This document shows, one piece after another, positions 2,497 through 29,419 of a DNA stretch of 64,000 nt. The translations under genes and the position numbers were made by a program. The DNA is from Opitutia bacterium (GTDB taxonomy: Bacteria; Verrucomicrobiota; Verrucomicrobiia; Opitutales; JABJCN01): the NCBI GenBank assembly GCA_038125285.1, contig JAYPDO010000001.1:5605-69604 (forward strand). The letters run 5' to 3'. Position 1 is the stretch's first letter, and each line of letters starts with the position of its first letter. The notes beneath the pieces were generated by a model. It did no database searches. It saw nothing but the letters and a program-made list of their open reading frames with translations, and was not told the DNA's origin.

Positions 2497-3936
2497 CTAG
2501 GCGATAAGATCGTCGACAACATGGCCGGACTCCCCTACCCCGGTGAGGCGGTTGTCGAGGCCTTTGAAACGGAAGGTCAGCTTTTTGTCGTCGAGGCCGA
2601 AGAGCTTAAGGAGGGTTGCTTGGAAGTCATTCACGTGGACAGGGTTTTCCGCGACGTGCCATCCAAGGTCGTCAGACTTTCCGTGGGTGTAGCCGGGTTT
2701 GCTTCCGCCGCCGGCCATCCACATGCTGAAGGCGAAGGGGTGGTGGTCGCGGCCGTCATTGCCTTGGGCAAGGGGTGTGCGCCCAAACTCGGTTCCCCAG
2801 ACCACGAGGGTTTCATCCAGCATGCCGCGTTGTTTGAGATCCTTGATCAGGGCGGCCATGCCTTGGTCGACGGCCTTAGCGTTGCTGTTGATATTGCCGG
2901 CGAGCCCGCCGTGGGCATCCCAACCGCCGTGGAAAATGTTGACGAAGCGGACGCCCCGCTCGACCAAGCGGCGGGCGAGCAAGCAGTTCTTGGCAAAGTC
3001 TCCGGGACCATAGGATTCCAGGGTGGCCTGGCTTTCCTTTCCAGTGTCGATCAACTCCGGGGCGGCGGTCTGCATGCGGAAGGCGAGTTCATAGGCGTCG
3101 ATGCGGCTTTGGATCTCGCCGTCATCCTGGATGCCAAGGCGTTCTTTGTTCAGGTCGGCCAGGGCGTCGAGGGAGGAGCGCTGGACTTGGGTGGTAAGGC
3201 CGGCCGGATTGTTCAAATTGAGGACGGGTTCGCCCTGGTTACGGAAGAGAACTCCACCGTAGCTAGAGGGCAAAAAGCCGTTGGTGTAGAGGGTCGCACC
3301 GCCCCGGGCCGCCCCCCCGGCGGTGAGGACGACATAGCCGGGCAAGTTCTCGGACTCGCTCCCTAAGCCGTAAGTGACCCAGGAACCGATGCTCGGGCGG
3401 CCAAATTGTTGCATCCCGCAACACATGGCAAGTTGGCCGGGATGGTGGTTGAACGCCTCCGTCTTCATGGAGTGGATCATGCAGATGTCGTCGGCGCAGG
3501 AGGAAAGGTGCGGCAAGGCGTCGGAGAACCACATCCCTGATTGGCCGTACTGCTTGAACTCGCGTTTGGAGGCCAGCACCTTGGCGTTTTTGTTGATGAA
3601 GGCAAAACGGACGCCTTCGGTAAGGGAGTCGGGCAAAGTTTCTCCGTTGTGCTCCACCAACTTGGGTTTGTAGTTGAAAAGTTCGAACTGGCTCGGTGCC
3701 CCGGCGAGGTACACGAAGATACATGCTTTGGCCGGGGCTTTCTTGAAGTGTGGGTCTTTCGGGGCGAGCGGATCCGTACGCGAAGACTTGGCGGCAGAAA
3801 GGTCGTTGGAGAGAAGGGAGGATAGGGCGATGCCCCCAAGTCCGCTGGCGCTGGTCGTGAGGAATTGGCGGCGGGAGGCGAGCATTTGGATCTGGTGGTA
3901 GGTAAGTTTCATGGCAATTCGGGTTCTAAAAATCAT
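2497..3936 (-). CDS. DUF1501 family protein (sulfatase/phosphatase-like fold) with Tat-type signal
   Basis: SRRQFLTTSASGLGGIAL twin-arginine motif. Typical DUF1501 blocks (GGWDHG-like GGWDAHG, FGRTP, GRDHH). The start ATG overlaps the upstream stop as ATGA (3933-3936). Confidence 0.9.
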   Translation of the reverse strand: MIFRTRIAMKLTYHQIQMLASRRQFLTTSASGLGGIALSSLLSNDLSAAKSSRTDPLAPKDPHFKKAPAKACIFVYLAGAPSQFELFNYKPKLVEHNGETLPDSLTEGVRFAFINKNAKVLASKREFKQYGQSGMWFSDALPHLSSCADDICMIHSMKTEAFNHHPGQLAMCCGMQQFGRPSIGSWVTYGLGSESENLPGYVVLTAGGAARGGATLYTNGFLPSSYGGVLFRNQGEPVLNLNNPAGLTTQVQRSSLDALADLNKERLGIQDDGEIQSRIDAYELAFRMQTAAPELIDTGKESQATLESYGPGDFAKNCLLARRLVERGVRFVNIFHGGWDAHGGLAGNINSNAKAVDQGMAALIKDLKQRGMLDETLVVWGTEFGRTPLAQGNDGRDHHPFAFSMWMAGGGSKPGYTHGKSDDLGWHVAENPVHVNDFQATLLKLFGLDDKKLTFRFKGLDNRLTGVGESGHVVDDLIA

Positions 3937-8510: not shown

Positions 8511-11500
8511 ATGGGACGCGACTGGAACAGTCTGCTGAACCCACCCAAATTCGACGTACCCATATTGAAAATAGAAACCTATCCAATTCGACGTACAATC
8601 CAGCCCGGCCTCCTCGCCTTATTGGGTGTGCTCCTGTCTGCGTGCGGTGACGAGGGGAAAAGCAAACCGGAAGTAGTCGCGGTAGAATCTTCCAATGTGG
8701 CCAAAGTCCCCACTCGCCCGGCGGAAAGTCCGTTTGTCCATCCTGGCCTGTTGTCCACAAAGGCGGATTTGGAGAGGATGGCGGCGAAGGTCGCCGCTGG
8801 CGAGGAACCCTGGATAGGGAGCTGGGACATCCTGGTTCGGAACACGGACGGCTTCCTCCGCCACAACCCGGAAGCCACGCCGACCGTCTACGTGGATTCG
8901 GACAAAGGGAGCAACTTCATCCGCTTGGCCAGGGATGCGGCGCGGGGCTACCAACTCGCGTTGCGGTACCATGGCTCGGGGGACAAGAGGTTCGCGGACA
9001 AGGCGGTGCAAATCTACAATGCCTGGGCAACCACCCACGGCCCGGCAGGGAAAGACCCGGAACCGGACGGCAATTCGGAGGGCTGGTACGGCAATACGAA
9101 TGCGGGGCTCCGGCAAGGCTTGTATGGATACCAATTTGCCTGCGGGGCGGAGTTGTTGCGGGAGTACGAAGGTTGGGACAGGAAGGATTTCAAACGGTTC
9201 CAAGCCTACATGCTGGACGAGTTTTACACGGGCAACAAATGGTTCCTTGAAGCCCGTTACGGGACTGTTCCCACCCACTACTGGGCCAACTGGGTTCATG
9301 CCAACCAGGCCTCCATGATGGCCATCGGGGTGCTTTGTGACGACCGGGCAATTTTTTCCAAAGCCGTGGATTATTTCCACAACGGCCCGGGGAACGAGAA
9401 CATCCGGCAGGCCGTCCAGTTCGTCCATCCGGATGGCCTCGGGCAATGGCAGGAAAGCGGCCGGGACCAGGGGCATTCTTTGATGGGGCCGCAGCTTCTC
9501 GGGACGGTTTGTGAAATTGCATGGAACCAAGGCGTCGACCTCTACGGGGCACAGGACAACCGTTTCTTCGCCGGGGTGGAATACATCTCGAAATACAATG
9601 TCGGGCATGAGGTCCCGTGGACGACCTACGTCTACGTCCACAAACATCCGGGCAAAGAGTTGTTCTGGGTACAAACCAATGTGAATGGCGGAGGCCGGGG
9701 CATCCTCCGGCCAGGTTGGGACCTCGTCTACAACCACTACGTCAACCGCAAGGGGATGGCCGCACCCTGGACAGAAAAGTATGCCCGGCGGAACAGGCCG
9801 GAAGGCGGAGGGTTCAACTTTGGCGGCACCAGCGGTGGGTTTGACGGGCTTGGCTTCACGACCTTGACCCACAGCCTCGAACCGATTGCCAAAGGCGCGC
9901 CTCCAGGTACGCCGAGGGTGGTGGTACAAGGCAGGCAAATAGCCCTTTCCTGGACAGGTTCGGCACATGCGGAAAGCTATGATGTGAAGCGCGCAACCCA
10001 AAGCGGAGGCCCTTACACAACTATTGCCACAACAGGCCGGATGCTCCTTTCCTACATCGACCCGGGCCTGACCGCTGGCACGACCTACTCCTACGTGGTT
10101 TCTGCCAACAATCCGGATGGCACGGTGGCAGACAGCAAGGAAGCCAAGGCCACTGCGGACGGGAAGCTCCACGGGAAGGTTATCGGCACAGAGGGTTCCT
10201 ACAAAAATTCCGGGGCAAGCATCACCACCCTCTTCGACGGCTCTTTCGATAACTATTTCGACCCGCCGACAACCAACGCTTGGGCAGGCATCGACATCGG
10301 GGAAGGCGTCACCGCCAAGGTTACGAAGGTCAAATACGCCCCCCGCAAATACTTCGGCGGACGGATGGTCGGCGGCACCTTCCAAGGCTCCAATACTGCG
10401 GACTTCAGCGAAGGCGTGAGCGACCTGTGCACCATTGCCAACGGGCCACCGGACGGAGTCCTCACCTCCCAGGTTGTCCAGTCAAACACCCCCTTCCGCT
10501 ATCTTCGTTACATCCAAACCACCGGAGAACGCTGGTGCAACGTGGCGGAAATCGAGTTCTATGGTGAAGTCCATGGCCAAGTCGCCCCACAAGCCCCCGC
10601 AGCTCCGGTCGCAGCCCCTGATGAGTCGAAGGTGGATTTGTCCTGGAAATCCGTCCCCAGGGCAACTCGCTACAACATCAAACGCGCAACTTCCCCAGAC
10701 GGGCCGTTCACCCTCATTGCCAATACGGCCGGAACCTCTTTCCGTGACGACGGACTCGCCCCCGGCTCCTACCACTACGTAGTCAGCTCCCTGAACGATG
10801 CAGGCGAATCCCAGGACTCCAAGGTCGCGGGCGGGCAACTCATTGGGAACATAAAGCTGGACGGGGCATCCTTTACCGCAAACGCCCACAGCACCTACTG
10901 GGGGGCGGACACCGAAGGCCCGGCCAAAGCCTTCGACGGGGACAGGAACACCCAGTGGTACAGCGGGGATGGCCATGCCTCTGGATGGCTGCAAGTCCAC
11001 CTCGGTGCTGGCAAGGACGCGACCGTTGCCCGCTACTCCCTCACTAGCTCCAAAGATGTTCCCGGACGCGATCCGAAGGACTGGGAACTGCATGGTTCGA
11101 CTGACGGGAAAAACTGGACGCCCCTGGATAACCGCAAGGACGAAACTTTCGGACGGCGCGGCGAAACCAAAACTTATCCTGTCAGCCGACCCGGTTCATA
11201 CCGCCACTACGGGCTCAACATCCGCTCCAACCAAAGCGGCAACCCCAAGGATGGCATCCAGTTGGCGGAACTCGAGTTCCTGGGGCACAGCAGCACACAA
11301 CCGGTGACCCCCATGAAGACAAAGGAAGTCATTCGGACACAACGGGAAATCACCAGGGCGGAACTGGAGGACAAAGTTGCCGGATACTGGCTCGGCCAAA
11401 TCATCGGCAACTACTTCGGCTTCCCCTTCGAGCTGCTTTACATCGAAGAACCCGTCCCGGTCACGGTCGACAAGTTCTTCACCCAGCGCAACAACGGGAA

Positions 11501-12503
11501 CATCAAAATCAACACCGATTGGCGGGGCAACATGGACCAGCAGGTACGCGATTACCATGGTGCCCCCTCCGACGACGACCACGACCTGGAGTTCCTCACC
11601 CTCCACGGGGTCGAAATGTACGGGCTGGACATCACCTATGAAGAGATTGCCCCCATGCTGGACAAGCATGTCACGCGCATGGTCTGGGTATCCACGGAAC
11701 GCGCGGTCAAAGCCATCCGCAAAGGCGCGATGCCCCCGGCAACCGGGACCATGCAAAACAACCCCTGGTGGCACGACCTGATGGCCTCCATCTCCACCGA
11801 AATCTGGGGTTCCTTTTATCCCGGCATGACTGGCGAAGCCGCCGCCGGGGCGGAATGGTTCGGGCGCATCACAAATGACGATTACGCCCTGTACCTGGCC
11901 AAGTTTTACGCCGCCATGATTAGCGCCGCCTATTTCGAATCCGATTACGACCAACTCCTCCGGCTCGGCATGGCACAAATCCCGCAGGACAACATCTTGT
12001 ACCAAGGCATCCTGGACGTCCAAAAGTGGTGTACGGAAAACCCCGATTGGCGGGTCACCCGGAAGCTGATTTACGAAAAGTACTACAAGAAGGACAAACC
12101 GAAGGACCTGTCCTCCATCGTCGACGCCTTGCCCAACGGCCTCATGGGAATCATGGCCTTGATTTACGCGAAGGGCGATTTTAAGGAAACCTTGTCCATT
12201 GCAACCACTGCCGGGCTCGACAGCGACAACCAACCCGCAACCCTCGGTGCACTCATCGGGGTCGTCAACGGGGCGAAAAACTTGCCGGAAGACTACAAGA
12301 TGATCCACACCGAAAACGCGGCGGAACCCTTCTACGGGACCTACGCCAACCACACCCGCGAAGGCTTACCCGAAAAGACAAAAATCAGCGACATCGTCAC
12401 CCGCATCGCCAATGTGGCCGAAAAGGCCATCCTGGCCAACGGCGGCAAGAAGGTCACTAACGCCAAAGGTGAAACAGCCTACCTCATCCAAGCCGACTTC
12501 TGA
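8511..12503 (+). CDS. Multidomain lipoprotein: alginate-lyase-like domain + FN3 + F5/8-type-C (discoidin/CBM32-like) + FN3 + F5/8-type-C + ADP-ribosylglycohydrolase-family domain
   Basis: Lipobox LLSAC. HPGLLSTKADLERMAAKVAAGEEPW and RDAARGYQLALRYHGSGDKRFADKAVQIYNAW (about 8720-9880). FN3-like SWTGSAHAESYDVKRATQSGGPYTTIA (about 9900-10160) and SWKSVPRATRYNIKRATSPDGPF (about 10590-10830). Discoidin-like FDG...W...IEFYG and FDGDRNTQW...LAELEFLG (about 10170-10565 and 10850-11285). ARH-like GFPFE, SDDDHDLEF, AGLDSDNQPATLGALIGV (about 11340-12500). Confidence 0.9.
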   Translation: MGRDWNSLLNPPKFDVPILKIETYPIRRTIQPGLLALLGVLLSACGDEGKSKPEVVAVESSNVAKVPTRPAESPFVHPGLLSTKADLERMAAKVAAGEEPWIGSWDILVRNTDGFLRHNPEATPTVYVDSDKGSNFIRLARDAARGYQLALRYHGSGDKRFADKAVQIYNAWATTHGPAGKDPEPDGNSEGWYGNTNAGLRQGLYGYQFACGAELLREYEGWDRKDFKRFQAYMLDEFYTGNKWFLEARYGTVPTHYWANWVHANQASMMAIGVLCDDRAIFSKAVDYFHNGPGNENIRQAVQFVHPDGLGQWQESGRDQGHSLMGPQLLGTVCEIAWNQGVDLYGAQDNRFFAGVEYISKYNVGHEVPWTTYVYVHKHPGKELFWVQTNVNGGGRGILRPGWDLVYNHYVNRKGMAAPWTEKYARRNRPEGGGFNFGGTSGGFDGLGFTTLTHSLEPIAKGAPPGTPRVVVQGRQIALSWTGSAHAESYDVKRATQSGGPYTTIATTGRMLLSYIDPGLTAGTTYSYVVSANNPDGTVADSKEAKATADGKLHGKVIGTEGSYKNSGASITTLFDGSFDNYFDPPTTNAWAGIDIGEGVTAKVTKVKYAPRKYFGGRMVGGTFQGSNTADFSEGVSDLCTIANGPPDGVLTSQVVQSNTPFRYLRYIQTTGERWCNVAEIEFYGEVHGQVAPQAPAAPVAAPDESKVDLSWKSVPRATRYNIKRATSPDGPFTLIANTAGTSFRDDGLAPGSYHYVVSSLNDAGESQDSKVAGGQLIGNIKLDGASFTANAHSTYWGADTEGPAKAFDGDRNTQWYSGDGHASGWLQVHLGAGKDATVARYSLTSSKDVPGRDPKDWELHGSTDGKNWTPLDNRKDETFGRRGETKTYPVSRPGSYRHYGLNIRSNQSGNPKDGIQLAELEFLGHSSTQPVTPMKTKEVIRTQREITRAELEDKVAGYWLGQIIGNYFGFPFELLYIEEPVPVTVDKFFTQRNNGNIKINTDWRGNMDQQVRDYHGAPSDDDHDLEFLTLHGVEMYGLDITYEEIAPMLDKHVTRMVWVSTERAVKAIRKGAMPPATGTMQNNPWWHDLMASISTEIWGSFYPGMTGEAAAGAEWFGRITNDDYALYLAKFYAAMISAAYFESDYDQLLRLGMAQIPQDNILYQGILDVQKWCTENPDWRVTRKLIYEKYYKKDKPKDLSSIVDALPNGLMGIMALIYAKGDFKETLSIATTAGLDSDNQPATLGALIGVVNGAKNLPEDYKMIHTENAAEPFYGTYANHTREGLPEKTKISDIVTRIANVAEKAILANGGKKVTNAKGETAYLIQADF

Positions 12504-12901: not shown

Positions 12902-12929
12902 TACATTGGGGCAAGTACAGTTTAAGGTG

Positions 12930-13172
12930 ATGAACATTTCCCTCACTCCTGAATTAGAACGGTCCGTCAAACAAAAGGTGGAATCCGGGCTGTACAACAA
13001 TGCAAGCGAAGTGATCCGGGAAGCATTACGGATCGTCCAAAAGCAGGAACAGGAGAACGATTGGCTAAGACGGGAGGCGGCGATTGGGTTTGCCCAACTT
13101 GAGGCTAGAGAAGTCACTCGGATCAAGTCCAAGGAAGAATTCAAGGATCTGGTCCGAGGGCTTGAAGGGTAA
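12930..13172 (+). CDS. parD: Type II antitoxin, ParD/CC2985 family
   Basis: MNISLTPELERSVKQKVESGLYNNASEVIREALRIVQKQE is the canonical ParD N-terminal ribbon-helix-helix signature. The ATG is at 12930. Confidence 0.85.
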   Translation: MNISLTPELERSVKQKVESGLYNNASEVIREALRIVQKQEQENDWLRREAAIGFAQLEAREVTRIKSKEEFKDLVRGLEG

Positions 13173-13180
13173 CCAATTGC

Positions 13181-13516
13181 ATGGATTTGGAATTTACCGA
13201 AGCCGCCTTGGGGGACTTACGGTCCATCCGGGCATACACCCTTGAAACCTGGGGTGAAAACCAGGAGGAACAATACCTGGAGGAGATGTGGGCAAGGTTC
13301 GAAGAAATCCAGGGGAACCCAGGTCGATGGCGTTCCAGCCCGCAATTCTCACGGAATTTCGTCGCGAGACGCAGCGAACGGCTCCAGGACAAGTCCCGGG
13401 AAATGGAAGACGCCGGGCTGGGTGAGTACACCCTGCTCAAGGATGACATGAGCGGGGCGAAGTCATGGTGCTGTGCAGCAAGTAGTAGCAGGAATTCCGT
13501 GAGAAATGCGGGCTAG
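13181..13516 (+). CDS. parE: ParE/RelE-family toxin, C-terminal half divergent and running into foreign sequence
   Basis: The N-terminal half FTEAALGDLRSIRAYTLETWGENQEEQYLEEMWARFEEI is typical ParE. The C-terminal half aligns only positionally (EDAGLGEYTLLKDDM against the usual ..DG.IEILRVLHGRMD). A 20-aa tail follows before the TAG. Confidence 0.6.
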   Translation: MDLEFTEAALGDLRSIRAYTLETWGENQEEQYLEEMWARFEEIQGNPGRWRSSPQFSRNFVARRSERLQDKSREMEDAGLGEYTLLKDDMSGAKSWCCAASSSRNSVRNAG

Positions 13517-13803: not shown

Positions 13804-14580
13804 TCACTCCACGATGAACCAAGGGTTGAGCAGGTTTTCCTTGTTATACCGGAGTGGTTTGCGGGTTTCGGGGTTGAGGATCTGGCGTCCTGTTTCCAGG
13901 GCAATTGCGTGGGCTGCTGCGGTATCCCATTCCATGGTCGGTGCAAAACGGGGATAAACGTCGGCCTCGCCTTCCGCCACGAGACAGATTTTCAAGGAAC
14001 TCCCCGATGAGAGCAGGTCGATTTCCTTGCCTAGTGACTTGAGGCTTTCAACAAATTCCTCTGTTTCCGGGGACATGTGGGAGCGGCTGGCCACCACGCG
14101 GACTTTGGCGAGCCCGGAATAATGTTCGCCCCCGCCCAGGGGCTGGGTTCCTCCTTCGGGGCTGGTTTTCACTGCGCCCTGCCCTTTGGAGGCATAGTAA
14201 AGCTTGTCTTTCGCCGGCTGATACACCACTCCAAGCGAAGGAACCCCATCCTCGACCAAGGCGATGTTCACAGTGAACTCCCCGTTCTTTTTTATAAATT
14301 CCTTGGTGCCGTCCAAAGGGTCGACCAACCAAAACTGCCGCCATCCCTTCCGGTCGGTGTAGGGTAGATTGAGGATTTCCTCGGAGATGATGGGGATGGC
14401 CGGATAAGTTTCCTTAAGCCCCGCGACGATGATGTCATTGGCCTTTTTGTCAGCTTCGGTCAGGGGTGATTTGTCCACCTTCTCCTCTACGGTAAACTCC
14501 CGTTGGTAGATTTCCATGATAGCCTCACCGGCCTGGAGGACGATTTCAATGATTCTGGAGGGTTCGGGTTGTAGTTCCAT
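13804..14580 (-). CDS. cysQ: 3'(2'),5'-bisphosphate nucleotidase CysQ (inositol monophosphatase family)
   Basis: WLVDPLDGTKEFIKKNGEFTVNIALVEDG, GVVYQP and WDTAAAHA motifs. The preferred start is MELQPEPSRIIEIVLQAGEAIMEIY (ATG at 14580). The track start at 14622 is the alternative. Confidence 0.85.
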   Translation of the reverse strand: MELQPEPSRIIEIVLQAGEAIMEIYQREFTVEEKVDKSPLTEADKKANDIIVAGLKETYPAIPIISEEILNLPYTDRKGWRQFWLVDPLDGTKEFIKKNGEFTVNIALVEDGVPSLGVVYQPAKDKLYYASKGQGAVKTSPEGGTQPLGGGEHYSGLAKVRVVASRSHMSPETEEFVESLKSLGKEIDLLSSGSSLKICLVAEGEADVYPRFAPTMEWDTAAAHAIALETGRQILNPETRKPLRYNKENLLNPWFIVE

Positions 14581-14643
14581 CCTGCCGAACGAAACATCCC
14601 CCAATAGGATCGCAAGCCCCAATCCGTCCTAACCCTTGCCCAA

Positions 14644-14681
14644 TAAAAAAAGTAAGGCACGTCCGGAGAGGGACGTGCCTT
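14644..14681 (-). terminator. Rho-independent terminator on the minus strand with no upstream minus-strand CDS
   Basis: Perfect 11-bp stem aaggcacgtcc / ggacgtgcctt (14654-14664 / 14671-14681) with a 6-nt loop. On the minus strand it is followed by AC-T7-ATTG. On the plus strand no T-run follows. Confidence 0.7.
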
Positions 14682-15095
14682 GACTTTGGGGAAAAAGGTC
14701 GCCGGGGTAAACGAACCTTCAGTACTTCTGGGGTTTACTGAGTGTCAGAGGTGCCTGACAGGATGGGCAACAATTGGGGTTGGGGGGTGTTTGGGGGGGT
14801 GTCGCCCATAGTCAGTCCGTTACAGAGTTGGGGGGTGTTGTTGTGTATTGTTGTCTGACTGGCTCTGTTGCCTAGGGTAGGTTTCTTCGCAAAGTGGCGC
14901 GTTCACAAACTCCACTTAATCATGCACACCCCACTGGCCATGGAAACACCAAGTTATTACAAGTTATTCACATTCAGGGTGCGGGAGGATCCCTGTAACC
15001 CGGCCCAGAGGAGGAAAAACACCCCGTTCACAGTAGCGTGGAAAATGGGTTCTAAGGAACCCTGTTCATACCACTGCAAAAAAAGGTTGAAAGTC

Positions 15096-15104
15096 GGGGG
15101 GGGG
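15096..15104. repeat. G9 homopolymer
   Basis: Nine consecutive G residues at 15096-15104, 22 nt upstream of the panD ATG at 15127. Confidence 0.9.
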
Positions 15105-15126
15105 TAATATTTTGGGACGGCTGAAG

Positions 15127-15462
15127 ATGTTGGTCACATTATTAAAATCAAAAATCCTGCGCGCCAAGGTCACGGACTCCAACCTCCACTACGAGGGTAG
15201 CCTTGGCATTGACAGCGCTTGGATGGAAGAGGTGGGTTTGTTCCCCTATGAAAAGATACTGGTGGGGAATATCAACACGGGCGACCGTTTTGAAACCTAT
15301 GCCATCCCGAGGGATGCCGGAAGCAGCGCCATCGAACTCAACGGTGCTGCAGCCAGGCTTGGGGAAAAGGGCGACTTGCTTGTGATCCTTGCCTTTGCCC
15401 AAGCGGAGGCTTCGGAGGCTTCGGGCTGGAAGCCCAAAGTCCTGGTGATGAAAGGCAACTGA
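15127..15462 (+). CDS. panD: Aspartate 1-decarboxylase
   Basis: [29 protein letters not shown] contains the G-S self-processing site. The track start at 15112 is TTG; the ATG at 15127 matches the usual PanD N-terminus. Confidence 0.9.
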
Positions 15463-19157: not shown

Positions 19158-19871
19158 ATGTCCAGGAACGCACTCATCATCGGCGGTGGCACGGGCATGG
19201 GTGAGGCCATCGCCCTCTCCTTTGACAAAGAAGGTTGGAAAACGGCCATAGCCGGACGACGCCAAGAAAAGTTGGACACAGTCGCGGCCAAGGCGCCCGG
19301 AATCCTCACCCATACCGTTGATGTCGGGGATCGCGGCCAAGTGGAGTCCCTGTTCGCATGGTTTGTCAAGGAAGTTGGCCCACTCGACATAATGGTCAAT
19401 TGCGCTGGTATCAACGTGGCCAAACGTACCATGGAAAACCTTTCCCCCGCAGACTGGGACAACCTGTTACGAATCAACGCCACGGGAGCATACGACTGCA
19501 TGCGCTGCGCCCTGGAGGACATGCGCCCCCGCCAGGATGGCATCATCATCAACATCTCCTCCGTAGCAGGCAAACGCGCTGCCCTCCTTGGCGGGGTGGC
19601 CTACAACGCCTCCAAGTTTGCCATGACCGCCTTAGGCACAACCGTCTCGGAAGAGGTCAAGGACCTAGGCATCCGCGTCACCAACATCTACCCCGGCGAG
19701 GTCAACACCCCCATACTGAACAACCGCCCGATCCCGCCGCCCGAGGAGCACCGTCAAAGCATCCTCCAGGCCGAAGATGTGGCACAAGCTGTCCTCATGG
19801 TAGCCAAACTCCCCCCACGCGCCCACATCCCCGAGCTCGTCATCAAGCCCACCAAGCAAGGCTACGTTTAG
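19158..19871 (+). CDS. SDR-family oxidoreductase
   Basis: IIGGGTGMGEA glycine motif, NISS and YNASK catalytic motif. Confidence 0.85.
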   Translation: MSRNALIIGGGTGMGEAIALSFDKEGWKTAIAGRRQEKLDTVAAKAPGILTHTVDVGDRGQVESLFAWFVKEVGPLDIMVNCAGINVAKRTMENLSPADWDNLLRINATGAYDCMRCALEDMRPRQDGIIINISSVAGKRAALLGGVAYNASKFAMTALGTTVSEEVKDLGIRVTNIYPGEVNTPILNNRPIPPPEEHRQSILQAEDVAQAVLMVAKLPPRAHIPELVIKPTKQGYV

Positions 19872-19926
19872 AGTAATTCGCCATTTCAAATTCTCCCAAC
19901 CCTTAACTCTCAAAATCGTAACACCA

Positions 19927-20235
19927 ATGGCCGGCGTCGGAAAACTTCTCAAACAAGCCCAGAAAATGCAGCGCAAGATGGAGCAAGCCCAGGAAAAGCT
20001 TGCCCAGCAAGAAATAGACGTCTCTTGCGGGGGCGGAGCCGTAGCGGTCAAAATAAATGGCCAAGGGGACTTCCTTTCCCTCAAACTCGACCCTGAATTC
20101 CTCAAGGAAGATGCCGAATTGGTTGAAGAAACCCTTTTGGAAGCCATCAAGGAAGCAGCGGCCAAAGCCAAGGAAACCAACGAAGAGGCAATGCAGGAAA
20201 TCCAAGCAGGCATGGGGATTCCCGGCCTGATGTGA
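19927..20235 (+). CDS. ybaB: Nucleoid-associated protein YbaB/EbfC
   Basis: KLLKQAQKMQRKMEQAQEKLAQQEIDVSCGGGAVAVKINGQGD is typical of YbaB. Confidence 0.9.
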   Translation: MAGVGKLLKQAQKMQRKMEQAQEKLAQQEIDVSCGGGAVAVKINGQGDFLSLKLDPEFLKEDAELVEETLLEAIKEAAAKAKETNEEAMQEIQAGMGIPGLM

Positions 20236-21007
20236 TTGTTTTCCTGGGGTATTCGGGGGCATGGCCTGCACCGATTGCCCAGGCATGGGATGACAGCCCT
20301 GGCTGATATTTCCAAAATCAATGGTTGTAAACTAGCAGCATGGGCGAAGTCACCCCCGTGAAAACTTTCCAATTCCCAGGGGTAAGGCGTATCGTTCAGC
20401 CAAATTTTAATTGGCTGGAGCACAAAGGCTTCCTGCCGTCATAAGTACCTGGCACCTGACCCCATGCTCCCTGGAAGGAAGCTATATCGGCGAATCAGCC
20501 TTGGTAGAGGCATCAGGGTAAACGGAGGGCATATCTGATACCAAACGCCGTTCGCAAAAAAACCCGAAGGCTGGAAAAACTCCGGGACAAAAAGATCCAC
20601 CGCCGCAGGCTCCGTGTCGAACATGGGTCCATGGGCAAAATCACAACCCATGGGCGGTGGATGGCACGACTCCTCCATCAGCATCGTATATTTCTAAAAC
20701 ATCGGCAAATGGGTCTACCACGATCTCCCCCGATGGGTCTGATTCGAAGCCACCTCCGACCTCGACCTCTGGCGCAGTATGGAAGGCAAAGGCTGGCACT
20801 GCACTGCCACACAAATCTATCCCTACCTACACTGCCATAACAACTCCGCCTGGGTTTACCTCCTGCGCAACCAAAACGGCAAAAACCACTTCTAAATCGC
20901 CACCACCGGCAAAATTGAGTAACCTCGCGCTACCCGTCTCTCCCTTCCTCTTTTTCTACCTTTCCAAACTTGCCCCCCTCCCCATCCTGAGCATTTTCAC
21001 GCGCTAG

Positions 21008-27764: not shown

Positions 27765-29312
27765 TCAGTAAAATAAATTCCGGTCCAAGCTGCGGTATTG
27801 GATGGCTTCGAGGAGATGGGCGGTGCCGATAGTTTGGCTGCCGTCGAGGTCGGCGATGGTTCGGGCGACTTTGAGGATGCGGTCGTAGGCGCGGGCGGAG
27901 AGGGAGAGGTCTTCCATAGCGCGCTGGAGCATGTCGCCTTCCGCTTTGCCGATTTGGCAATTTTGCTGGATCTGGCGGTGTTGCATCCGGGCGTTGCAGG
28001 TGGTCGGGGTGCCTTGGAAACGGGTGGTTTGGATGGCACGGGCGTTGGAGACGCGGTCGCGGATGGAGGAAGAGGTTTCGCCGGGCCGGGTGGAGCGAAG
28101 TTCGTCAATGCCGAGGGACGGGACTTCGATGTGGAGGTCGATCCGGTCCAACAAGGGCCCGCTGATTTTGGAGCGGTAGCGTTGGACTTGTTGGACGCTG
28201 CAACGGCATTCGTGGCGGGGGTCGCCGAGGTAGCCGCAAGGACAGGGGTTCATTGCAGCGACAAGCATGAAAGAGCAAGGCAATGTGACTTTTCCAGCGC
28301 TCCTGGAGATGGTGACTTCTCCGTCTTCGAGGGGTTGGCGTAGGACTTCGAGTGCGGAACGTTTGAACTCTGGGAGTTCGTCCAGGAAGAGGACGCCGTT
28401 GTGGGCAAGGGAGATTTCCCCTGGGCCCGGGATGGAGCCGCCACCAAGGAGGCCGACGTCGCTAATCGTGTGGTGCGGGGACCGGAAGGGGCGTTCAAAG
28501 GCGAGGCCGTCGCCTTTGAGGGTCATCCCGGCGGAGGAATGGATGCTGAGGATTTCCAGGAATTCGTCCCGGATCGGGGTGGGCATGATGGAGGGGATAC
28601 GTTTGGCAACCATGGACTTCCCTGCCCCAGGCGGCCCGATCATCAGGAGGTTGTGCCCGCCGGCAACGGCGACTTCCAAGGCACGGCGCAAAGGTTCCTG
28701 GCCTTTCACATCGGAGAAATCCAGCCCGGCGTAGGCCTCCAGGCAAATTGCCTCGGGCTCTGTCGCCTTCATCCTGGGCAATTCGGCATCCGGTTCTGTA
28801 AAAAACCGGAAGACGGCATCCAGGGACTTTGCCACGTAGATTTCCAAGCCCTCGCCGACCAAGGCGGCTTCCTTGGCGGTGACTTCGGGAAGGATGACGC
28901 CCTTCTTGCCTTCCTTTGCGGCAAGGCGGGCCAACATCAACCCGCCCTTTACCCCCCGCACTTCGGAAGACAAGGCCAGCTCCCCGGCCACCAAGTAATC
29001 TTGGGGTTCACGGGGCAAGTCCGCCCTCCCGACCATGGCCAGGGCGGCTCCCAATGCGATGGGCAGGTCGAAGCTCGGGCCTTCCTTGCGAAGGTTCCCT
29101 GGGGCGAGGTTGATGGTCGTGCGGGTGTAGGGCATCTGGAGCCCGGAGTTGGACAGGGCGGAGAACACGCGGTCACGGGATTCTTTCACCGCCGCATCCG
29201 GCAACCCCACCATCACGAATCCCAAGTCACCGATTTCGCCAGTGTTGACCTCGACTTCCACAGGCAACGCCTCCACCCCCAGCAACGTCCCTGAAAACAA
29301 ACGGGTAAACAT
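27765..29312 (-). CDS. comM: YifB/ComM family Mg-chelatase-like AAA+ ATPase
   Basis: [23 protein letters not shown] start (ATG at 29312). GPPGAGKSM Walker [12 protein letters not shown] Walker B. C-terminal [18 protein letters not shown]. Confidence 0.9.
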
Positions 29313-29419
29313 GATCAGAATTCCAAAACTCGCCCGCACCTTCGGAAAGTGCCTTGGTTGTGGCAAAGGAAAAATTGACTCAAAATTCACGGCTACCATG
29401 GTTCAGCTCCCAACCAAAC

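Follow-up and report, generated by a model that had tools for sequence, protein, structure and literature searches.

A probable gene for a C-rich small RNA, divergent from panD, in Opitutales bacteria

Conserved intergenic small RNAs (sRNAs) with C-rich motifs are familiar in phyla other than the Verrucomicrobiota. The sigma-E-dependent MicA and RybB and the GacA-dependent RsmY and RsmZ are divergent sRNA genes with strongly conserved promoters. The closest system described so far is RsaE/RoxS (RF01820) of the Firmicutes, the C-rich motifs of which bind G-rich and Shine-Dalgarno sequences (PMC6158497). Here we analyse a spacer in a 64-kb stretch of DNA from an Opitutia bacterium (assembly GCA_038125285.1, contig JAYPDO010000001.1); the whole stretch is called the window below, and all coordinates are window-based unless a contig is named. 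The spacer, at 14581–15126, lies between cysQ on the minus strand and panD on the plus strand and contains no convincing open reading frame (ORF). An earlier note on this DNA had called it gene-free, and the ORF and Pfam check from cysQ to panD agrees. Our reading, which we hold with a probability of roughly 70%, is that the spacer carries an independent minus-strand gene for a C-rich, G-poor, trans-acting sRNA of ~265–290 nucleotides (nt) with its own promoter. The gene looks like a previously undescribed one.

The proposed RNA shares several features with RsaE/RoxS. The latter is a stand-alone sRNA with an intrinsic terminator, it has several CCCC-type motifs in loops or single strands, and its promoter region is highly conserved (in RoxS, under a two-component system). 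Pairing with G-rich or Shine-Dalgarno regions is documented for it (PMC6158497), and we propose it for the RNA of the spacer. The two differ in size and phylogeny. RsaE/RoxS is ~100 nt long, with two hairpins and a terminator, whereas the spacer RNA would span ~265–290 nt, with at least five helices and an extra CA-rich loop; the former belongs to the Firmicutes and the latter to the Verrucomicrobiota, Opitutales. Moreover, no sequence or covariance-model similarity to RsaE/RoxS was found, the model searches reaching E ≤ 10 in 14400–15300 and E ≤ 5 in relatives. The spacer RNA may resemble RsaE/RoxS in mechanism while standing outside that family.

Nor was any other known family recovered. At the gathering score, Rfam 15 gave no match on either strand of the 64-kb window and none in seven relatives. 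At E ≤ 10, the segment 14400–15300 returned noise only (e.g. eukaryotic long noncoding RNA and microRNA models), and five relatives searched at E ≤ 5 did likewise, the relatives spanning four other lineages. ARAGORN found no tRNA or tmRNA gene in the window. RNase P RNA and signal recognition particle RNA were likewise not detected by Rfam; the earlier note had seen by eye no resemblance to either, to tmRNA or to the SAM riboswitch. 6S RNA, which folds as a rod with its 5′ and 3′ ends paired about a central bubble, was considered and rejected: there is no Rfam match to RF00013, and the folds obtained are serial local hairpins plus a terminator, with end-to-end pairing that is not conserved. 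A full-text literature search returned no paper linking an sRNA to Opitutales or Opitutae. What we describe would be a new RNA family of a familiar type, not a new kind of system.

The loci compared here were collected by two routes. Closer CysQ proteins (81% identity) led to contigs L082–L084, where the order topA–aminotransferase–panD / spacer / cysQ is that of the window. Aligned with these contigs, the window shows ~95% identity on the minus strand between AATGTGAATAACTT and the U-run, far above the spacer flanks, and conservation ends at the U-run. PanD homologs, with source labels Opitutales or Opitutae, added four more contig groups, all of which have a gene-free spacer of 457–603 nt upstream of panD. 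On its other side, this spacer is bounded by the 3′ end of a convergent epimerase gene in L092–L099 and L102, and by recQ, on the element's own strand, in L104–L123 (hereafter the far group, as opposed to the near lineages). With the window core as query, nhmmer recovered L092–L099 and L102 at E values of 1e-16 to 1e-32; across the relatives the values run from 1e-16 to 1e-64, and the matches always lie on the strand opposite to panD, i.e. divergent from it. The element goes with the panD upstream region, regardless of the gene past its 3′ end.

Sequence divergence at these loci was gauged from four-fold degenerate sites in two flanking genes, panD and the aminotransferase gene next to it. The RNA block is 87% identical between the window and L082/L084, against 44–55% at the four-fold sites of the flanking genes; the corresponding values are 72% against 25–40% for L092 and 69% against 30–33% for L098. 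Overall, this noncoding block is conserved as much as, or more than, the neighbouring coding DNA, and it is under purifying selection. Two general marks of a trans-encoded sRNA are present at the locus: a terminator on the RNA strand that is kept in relatives, and purifying selection that acts on a noncoding sequence independently of the coding genes beside it. The far group keeps the 22-nt upstream motif described below and, at a fixed 84–87 nt from it, GAAACCTACCC, followed by a different C-rich body and a terminator. The element was not found at Coraliomargarita-type panD loci, where the spacer measures 160 nt. A metagenome scan with the 18-mer AAGAAACCTACCCTAGGC gave two matches (L090 and L091), neither of which matched the element by nhmmer; the L090 match lies inside an ORF. 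As found so far, the element is confined to Opitutales-type Verrucomicrobia; complete metagenome-assembled genomes with it include GCA_018663085.1, GCA_018673815.1 and GCA_964432425.1.

The conserved unit reaches further upstream than the earlier note had placed it, to ~14912–14935, and is preceded by an invariant promoter-proximal motif at 14972–14951. This motif, TGTGAATAACTT-NN-AATAACTT on the minus strand, contains two AATAACTT repeats 10 bp apart and, bar the NN, is identical in 20 of 20 distinct spacers from five lineages. The 22-mer occurs once in the window, against an expectation of 0. From its sequence and position it is presumed to be the recognition site of a transcription factor or sigma factor at the sRNA promoter. 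Transcription would start just downstream of it, and the 10-bp spacing of the repeats points to an activator that binds as a head-to-tail dimer, or else to an alternative sigma factor.

Two putative promoter models fit the conservation of the letters that follow. In model A, TTYYCA-16-(TGTG)CAWKMT, the minus-strand hexamer TTTCCA (14941–14946) would be the -35 element and CATGAT after TGTG (14919–14924, minus strand) a putative extended -10, with a start near 14912. In model B, which resembles promoters of the extracytoplasmic function (ECF) type and reads AACTT-N15-TYYCA, the same TTTCCA would serve as the -10 and the start would fall near 14934. The TTYYCA consensus and its position are kept in the near lineages. 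The window, L082, L084, L092, L098 and L099 all have TGTGCA together with a hexamer whose second letter is A and whose sixth is T. Both models are weak consensus matches, TTTCCA being a weak match to the E. coli consensus, and neither was reported by the consensus scan.

Taken as a gene, the locus is reminiscent of the MicA/RybB/RsmY/RsmZ type, with which it shares an invariant promoter-proximal motif that exceeds the RNA body in conservation, an independent gene, a Rho-independent terminator and one syntenic neighbour. It differs in that the two AATAACTT repeats match no site that could be tested, and dependence on a particular sigma factor or activator is putative. The 22-mer was also looked for in viral contigs. 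There were two matches, both in AT-rich phage contigs of IMG/VR (L134, 7002–7023, and L135, 743–764); they were judged chance matches unrelated to the element, since an AT-rich pattern is found here in AT-rich phage DNA. The L134 copy overlaps the last codons of a DNA methyltransferase ORF.

We propose from the sequence that the transcription unit lies on the minus strand within 14645–14935, with a 5′ end between ~14935 and 14911 and a 3′ end in the U-run at 14651–14645. It would be closed by an intrinsic terminator (14645–14681, minus strand), in which an 11-bp stem with 7 G-C pairs (14681–14654) encloses a loop of 6 and is followed by AC and U7 (14653–14645). The terminator scan placed ACUUUUUUU directly after this stem, and the minus-strand terminator with 11-bp stem and T7 recorded in the earlier note stands at 14681–14645. 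The RNA block closes with a terminator in every lineage examined. In the relatives, 99% of the cells of this helix are paired, versus 29–57% with the partners slid; one pair is switched on both sides (G-C to A-U), and the innermost pair is C-G, U-G or U-A depending on the lineage.

Between the promoter region and the terminator, the RNA would fold as a series of local helices, all on the minus strand. The motif GAAACCUACCC (14875–14885), 84–87 nt from the start of the upstream motif, is the only intra-RNA motif that is invariant in all lineages, the far group included. It is followed by helix HA (14810–14860), AGUCAG paired with CUGACU around a large loop, which holds the CA-rich tract ACAACAAUACACAACAACA (14854–14836), a tract without variation among the near lineages; the loop of the window lineage also carries the first AACACCCCCCAA motif. 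Five base pairs of HA (GUCAG/CUGAY) are kept in all near lineages, with a G-C pair becoming G-U in L092, L098 and L099. Hairpin H3 (14763–14809) has 10-bp arms at 14809–14800 and 14772–14763, and a C-rich loop of 27 nt, CCCCCCCAAACACCCCCCAACCCCAAU. As previously noted, its stem is complete on the minus strand with one G-U pair, which would be an A-C mismatch on the plus strand. Within this stem, GGGCGACA/UGUUGCCC in the window corresponds to GAGCAGC/GCUGCUC in L098 and L099, two positions being changed on both sides, and the loop is C/U-rich throughout (CACCUC in L092, AACCUC in L098). In L082 (~3663–3675, UGGGCAA) and L092 (~2797–2805, GGGGCAG), a segment in the 5′ part of the RNA can compete with the 5′ arm of H3 for pairing with the 3′ arm; this could represent an alternative conformation, one that is without counterpart in the window, L098 and L099.

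The two smaller hairpins that had been seen next to H3 both exist in the window and fare differently in relatives. The first, GUCAG-GCACCU-CUGAC (14744–14759), is not kept even in the closest relatives, being broken in L082 and L084 (CUGCC for CUGAC), and only the ACCUC/ACCUA motif inside it is retained. The second, H5 (14720–14740), in which CAGUA and UACUG enclose the loop AACCCCAGAAG, is weakly kept: its stem has 3–5 bp across lineages, the loop reads AACCCCA, and UCAGUAAMCCCC is conserved. Hairpin H6 (14695–14719), AAGGUU/GACCUU, has a loop with a conserved ACCCC; across lineages it takes the form AAGGUU(A)/(U)AACCUU, and 93% of its cells are paired in the near lineages, where U-G and U-A pairs alternate. 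Next to the terminator, on its 5′ side, lies the tract UUUCCCCAAAGU (14683–14694), invariant in all near lineages, whose AAAGU is able to pair with the ACUUU after the terminator stem. A long-range helix between GGGGUGUG (14932–14925) and the first C-rich motif was tried and rejected: it looks compensatory in the three closest sequences and is absent in L092 and L098.

Folding assigns this structure to the minus strand, as had been supposed. Relative to dinucleotide shuffles, the RNA strand of the window (14645–14935) has a folding z-score of -3.9, and the values in L082, L092 and L104 are -4.3, -5.2 and -6.9, while the opposite (plus) strand of the window (14645–14912) scores -1.3. H3, HA, H6 and both terminator types contain G-U pairs that would read A-C on the plus strand. 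Double-sided changes of a pair were seen in H3 (two), the terminator (one or two), the outer 5′ helix of L098/L099 (one) and a hairpin of the far group (one). Because MAFFT alignments placed H3 and H6 out of register between lineages, helices were tabulated by script, and pair counts were taken on the sole sub-alignment in register (H6 plus terminator), where 97% of cells pair versus 29–57% with the partners slid.

The composition of the RNA suggests how it might act. In every lineage, the far group included, it contains 29–36% C and 10–19% G, with 5–11 runs of at least three C against 0–2 G-runs per molecule. The loops of H3, H5 and H6 hold such C-runs, as do the single-stranded UUUCCCCAAAGU, the invariant GAAACCUACCC and ACCUC-type motifs, which we take to resemble the anti-Shine-Dalgarno sequence. 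The RNA would act in trans, with the C-runs exposed in the three loops, UUUCCCCAAAGU and GAAACCUACCC pairing with G-rich ribosome-binding regions of mRNAs, and this pairing would block translation of the targets in the manner of RsaE/RoxS. One candidate target is adjacent. In the 5′ region of cysQ, the minus-strand G-run UUGGGGGAUGUU (14593–14604) is complementary at 11 of 12 positions to the duplicated AACACCCCCCAA. Since the match decays in relatives, being weaker in L082 and absent in L084, cysQ could at most be a local target in the window lineage, or it may receive read-through; neither would be a conserved property of the element.

Several observations weigh against an independent trans-acting sRNA. 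What the far group has in common with the other lineages is limited to the upstream motif, GAAACCUACCC, a C-rich character and a terminator, and because it shares so little, the C-loops are perhaps not what has been conserved for function. Two of the three gene arrangements place the start of a same-strand gene 64–65 nt past the terminator, and read-through may play some role. The 5′ end and the promoter rest on the weak consensus matches of the two models, which are ~22 nt apart. Lastly, covariation is thin: there are about five independent lineages, and in the 3′ domain 1 of 23 pairs has changes in both partners, no more than the shuffled controls give on this measure. Since most pairs never vary, the structural case leans on conservation, stability and strand asymmetry more than on covariation.

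The main rival to mRNA pairing, and an unlikely one, is that the RNA is itself a binding platform or decoy. The C-rich loops and the CA-rich tract would then titrate a KH-type or Hfq-like factor, or the RNA would be a decoy for Rho or the ribosome, by analogy with CsrB/RsmZ or CrcZ. The 5–11 similar C-runs per molecule in every lineage fit this proposal, as do a length of ~270 nt, which exceeds that of typical seed-type sRNAs, and the invariance of ACAACAAUACACAACAACA, a tract that resembles A-rich or ARN-type protein-binding tracts. However, we identified no candidate protein partner, and the sequence context of the motifs differs between lineages. A bolder variant, which we consider somewhat more doubtful still, would make the RNA the first member of an Opitutales-specific class of regulatory RNA controlled through the invariant DnaA-box-like motif or by an ECF factor. 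Its C-loops would serve as a multivalent decoy (a mimic of the anti-Shine-Dalgarno sequence, or a ligand of a C-binding protein or Rho) that couples a global signal to translation, with read-through downstream. If true, the global signal would be, for example, replication or envelope stress.

The earlier note had left it open whether the RNA stands alone as an sRNA or governs cysQ in cis, via the terminator, as a leader, attenuator or riboswitch, and it had proposed to look for covariation upstream of orthologous cysQ genes. The locus does share with terminator-type riboswitches and attenuators a structured RNA and, in two of three arrangements, a strong terminator 64–65 nt upstream of a gene on the same strand. 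In the window the terminator is 64 nt from the cysQ ATG, the stretch between them showed no convincing promoter for cysQ, the cysQ G-run offers its 11 of 12 matches to the duplicated C-rich motif, and the arrangement of element and cysQ is kept in L082–L084. CysQ orthologs at 70–75% identity are encoded 40 nt behind a Ser/Thr-kinase gene, without the element, and none of 80 cysQ loci from GTDB representative genomes (best identity 66%) has it. Conversely, the element precedes recQ in the far group and faces the 3′ end of a convergent gene in L092–L099 and L102. The downstream genes are thus unrelated in function (cysQ, recQ) or, in the convergent arrangement, absent, unlike those of a riboswitch family; the element matches no Rfam family, and Rfam 15 matched no aptamer or riboswitch on either strand. 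Neither inspection of the sequence nor the minimum-free-energy and centroid folds showed an antiterminator segment that could pair with the 5′ arm AAGGCACGUCC, a dedicated search for alternative structures not having been made. Control of cysQ in cis is therefore very improbable, and since the 3′ neighbour varies (cysQ, recQ or the convergent epimerase gene) while panD stays, synteny largely refutes a dedicated cysQ leader or riboswitch. The stand-alone sRNA, on the other hand, is supported by conservation, strand-specific structure, the compensatorily kept terminator and independence from the downstream gene.

We find it just as improbable that the conserved block acts purely as DNA, be it in the regulation of panD, as a site under DnaA control or as a region akin to a replication origin. 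In favour of such a role, the block is always found with panD, and two of the three arrangements have genes that diverge from the spacer. The first repeat of the upstream motif contains, on the plus strand, the perfect DnaA-box consensus TTATTCACA, which is the sole TTATNCACA match and thus the only perfect consensus box in the window, and GAAACCTACCC shares 9 nt with a sequence from the literature, the Thermotoga maritima DnaA box AAACCTACCACC. However, there is one conserved DnaA-box-like site (TTATTCACA) per spacer in eight lineages or sublineages, which rules out an oriC or DnaA-box cluster, and no dnaA or dnaN gene is nearby. Promoter-like signals proximal to panD lie elsewhere, at 15087–15113. 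A DNA-level role also leaves unexplained the strand-specific folding, the G-U pairs, the compensatory changes and the orientation-specific U-run terminator. Finally, a small-protein gene is the least probable of all: the 24-codon Pro-rich small ORF at 14809–14735 is present in the window as had been described, and the 6-nt indel that separates the window from L082 leaves its frame intact, but its substitutions are mostly non-synonymous, its region forms the covarying hairpin H3, its ATG is missing in L098 and L099, its place is taken in L092 by a wholly unrelated 16-aa peptide, and 1- and 2-nt frame-shifting indels within the conserved block (window versus L082) contradict a leader peptide, while the 79-codon plus-strand ORF at 14868–15107 has no Pfam match.

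Of the genes that flank the spacer, the cysQ product matches Pfam Inositol_P (2.7e-53), and its start is most likely the ATG at 14580. The panD product matches Asp_decarbox (3.2e-38); judging from the sequence, ATG 15127 is more likely to be its start than TTG 15112, since the homologs are 111 aa long and begin MLVTLLKSK. The earlier note had put the nearest minus-strand coding sequence upstream of the element more than 13 kb away. This is about right, the first Pfam-matched ORF to the right being at 27765–29399 (Mg_chelatase/ComM-like); a minus-strand ORF of 252 aa at 19665–20423, without a Pfam match, may also be a gene.

Further features were observed in the panD-proximal part of the spacer. 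A promoter-like array at 15078–15127 is kept in all lineages and consists of an A7 tract, TTGAAA (15087–15092), a 15-nt spacer and TATTTT (15108–15113); as a panD promoter, the elements at 15087–15113 would give a very short 5′ untranslated region. In the window lineage only, the spacer of this putative promoter contains a G9 homopolymer (15096–15104), at the place of which L082 has CCAGGGCCGG and L092 TTGGATTTTGG. Slipped-strand phase variation classically relies on such a homopolymer in a promoter spacer. A palindrome, GGGTTC-TAAG-GAACCC (15047–15062; ~2919–2934 in L092), lies on the panD side of the sRNA promoter motif and is present in all lineages. Its arms change in concert, some lineages having GGGTTCC/GGAACCC and others GGGTCCC/GGGACCC; about five of seven lineages have a T-run after it on the sRNA strand, and the terminator scan flags the L092 copy as terminator-like. 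The palindrome could be the end of a second short minus-strand transcript, an insulator of the sRNA promoter or an operator.

On the far side of cysQ, downstream of it, a plus-strand ORF at 13181–13516 matches the ParE toxin family (PF05016, E 2.7e-06) and is preceded by a small plus-strand ORF (12906–13172), a possible antitoxin gene. A toxin-antitoxin module appears to have been inserted at 12906–13516, because L082–L084 carry a PCMT methyltransferase gene at this site and L081, a 98% relative, retains only a 59-aa PCMT fragment. Further left, the 1330-aa ORF at 8511–12503 is an unusual fusion of alginate-lyase, fibronectin-III, F5/8 type C and ADP-ribosylglycohydrolase domains. GC skew in the window tracks gene orientation, coding strands having C>G and A>T: it is -0.1 to -0.34 across runs of plus-strand genes and positive across minus-strand genes. 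For this reason, cumulative GC skew is here uninformative on the direction of replication.

Most members of the Opitutales group are uncultured aquatic bacteria. The element described here could be an entry point to RNA-based regulation in the Verrucomicrobiota, and its alignment is a possible seed for a new Rfam family. As a candidate it is well delimited, with an invariant promoter motif, a defined 3′ end and an architecture of motifs that suggests a testable mechanism, and the invariant 22-nt motif could provide a handle on its cognate regulator.

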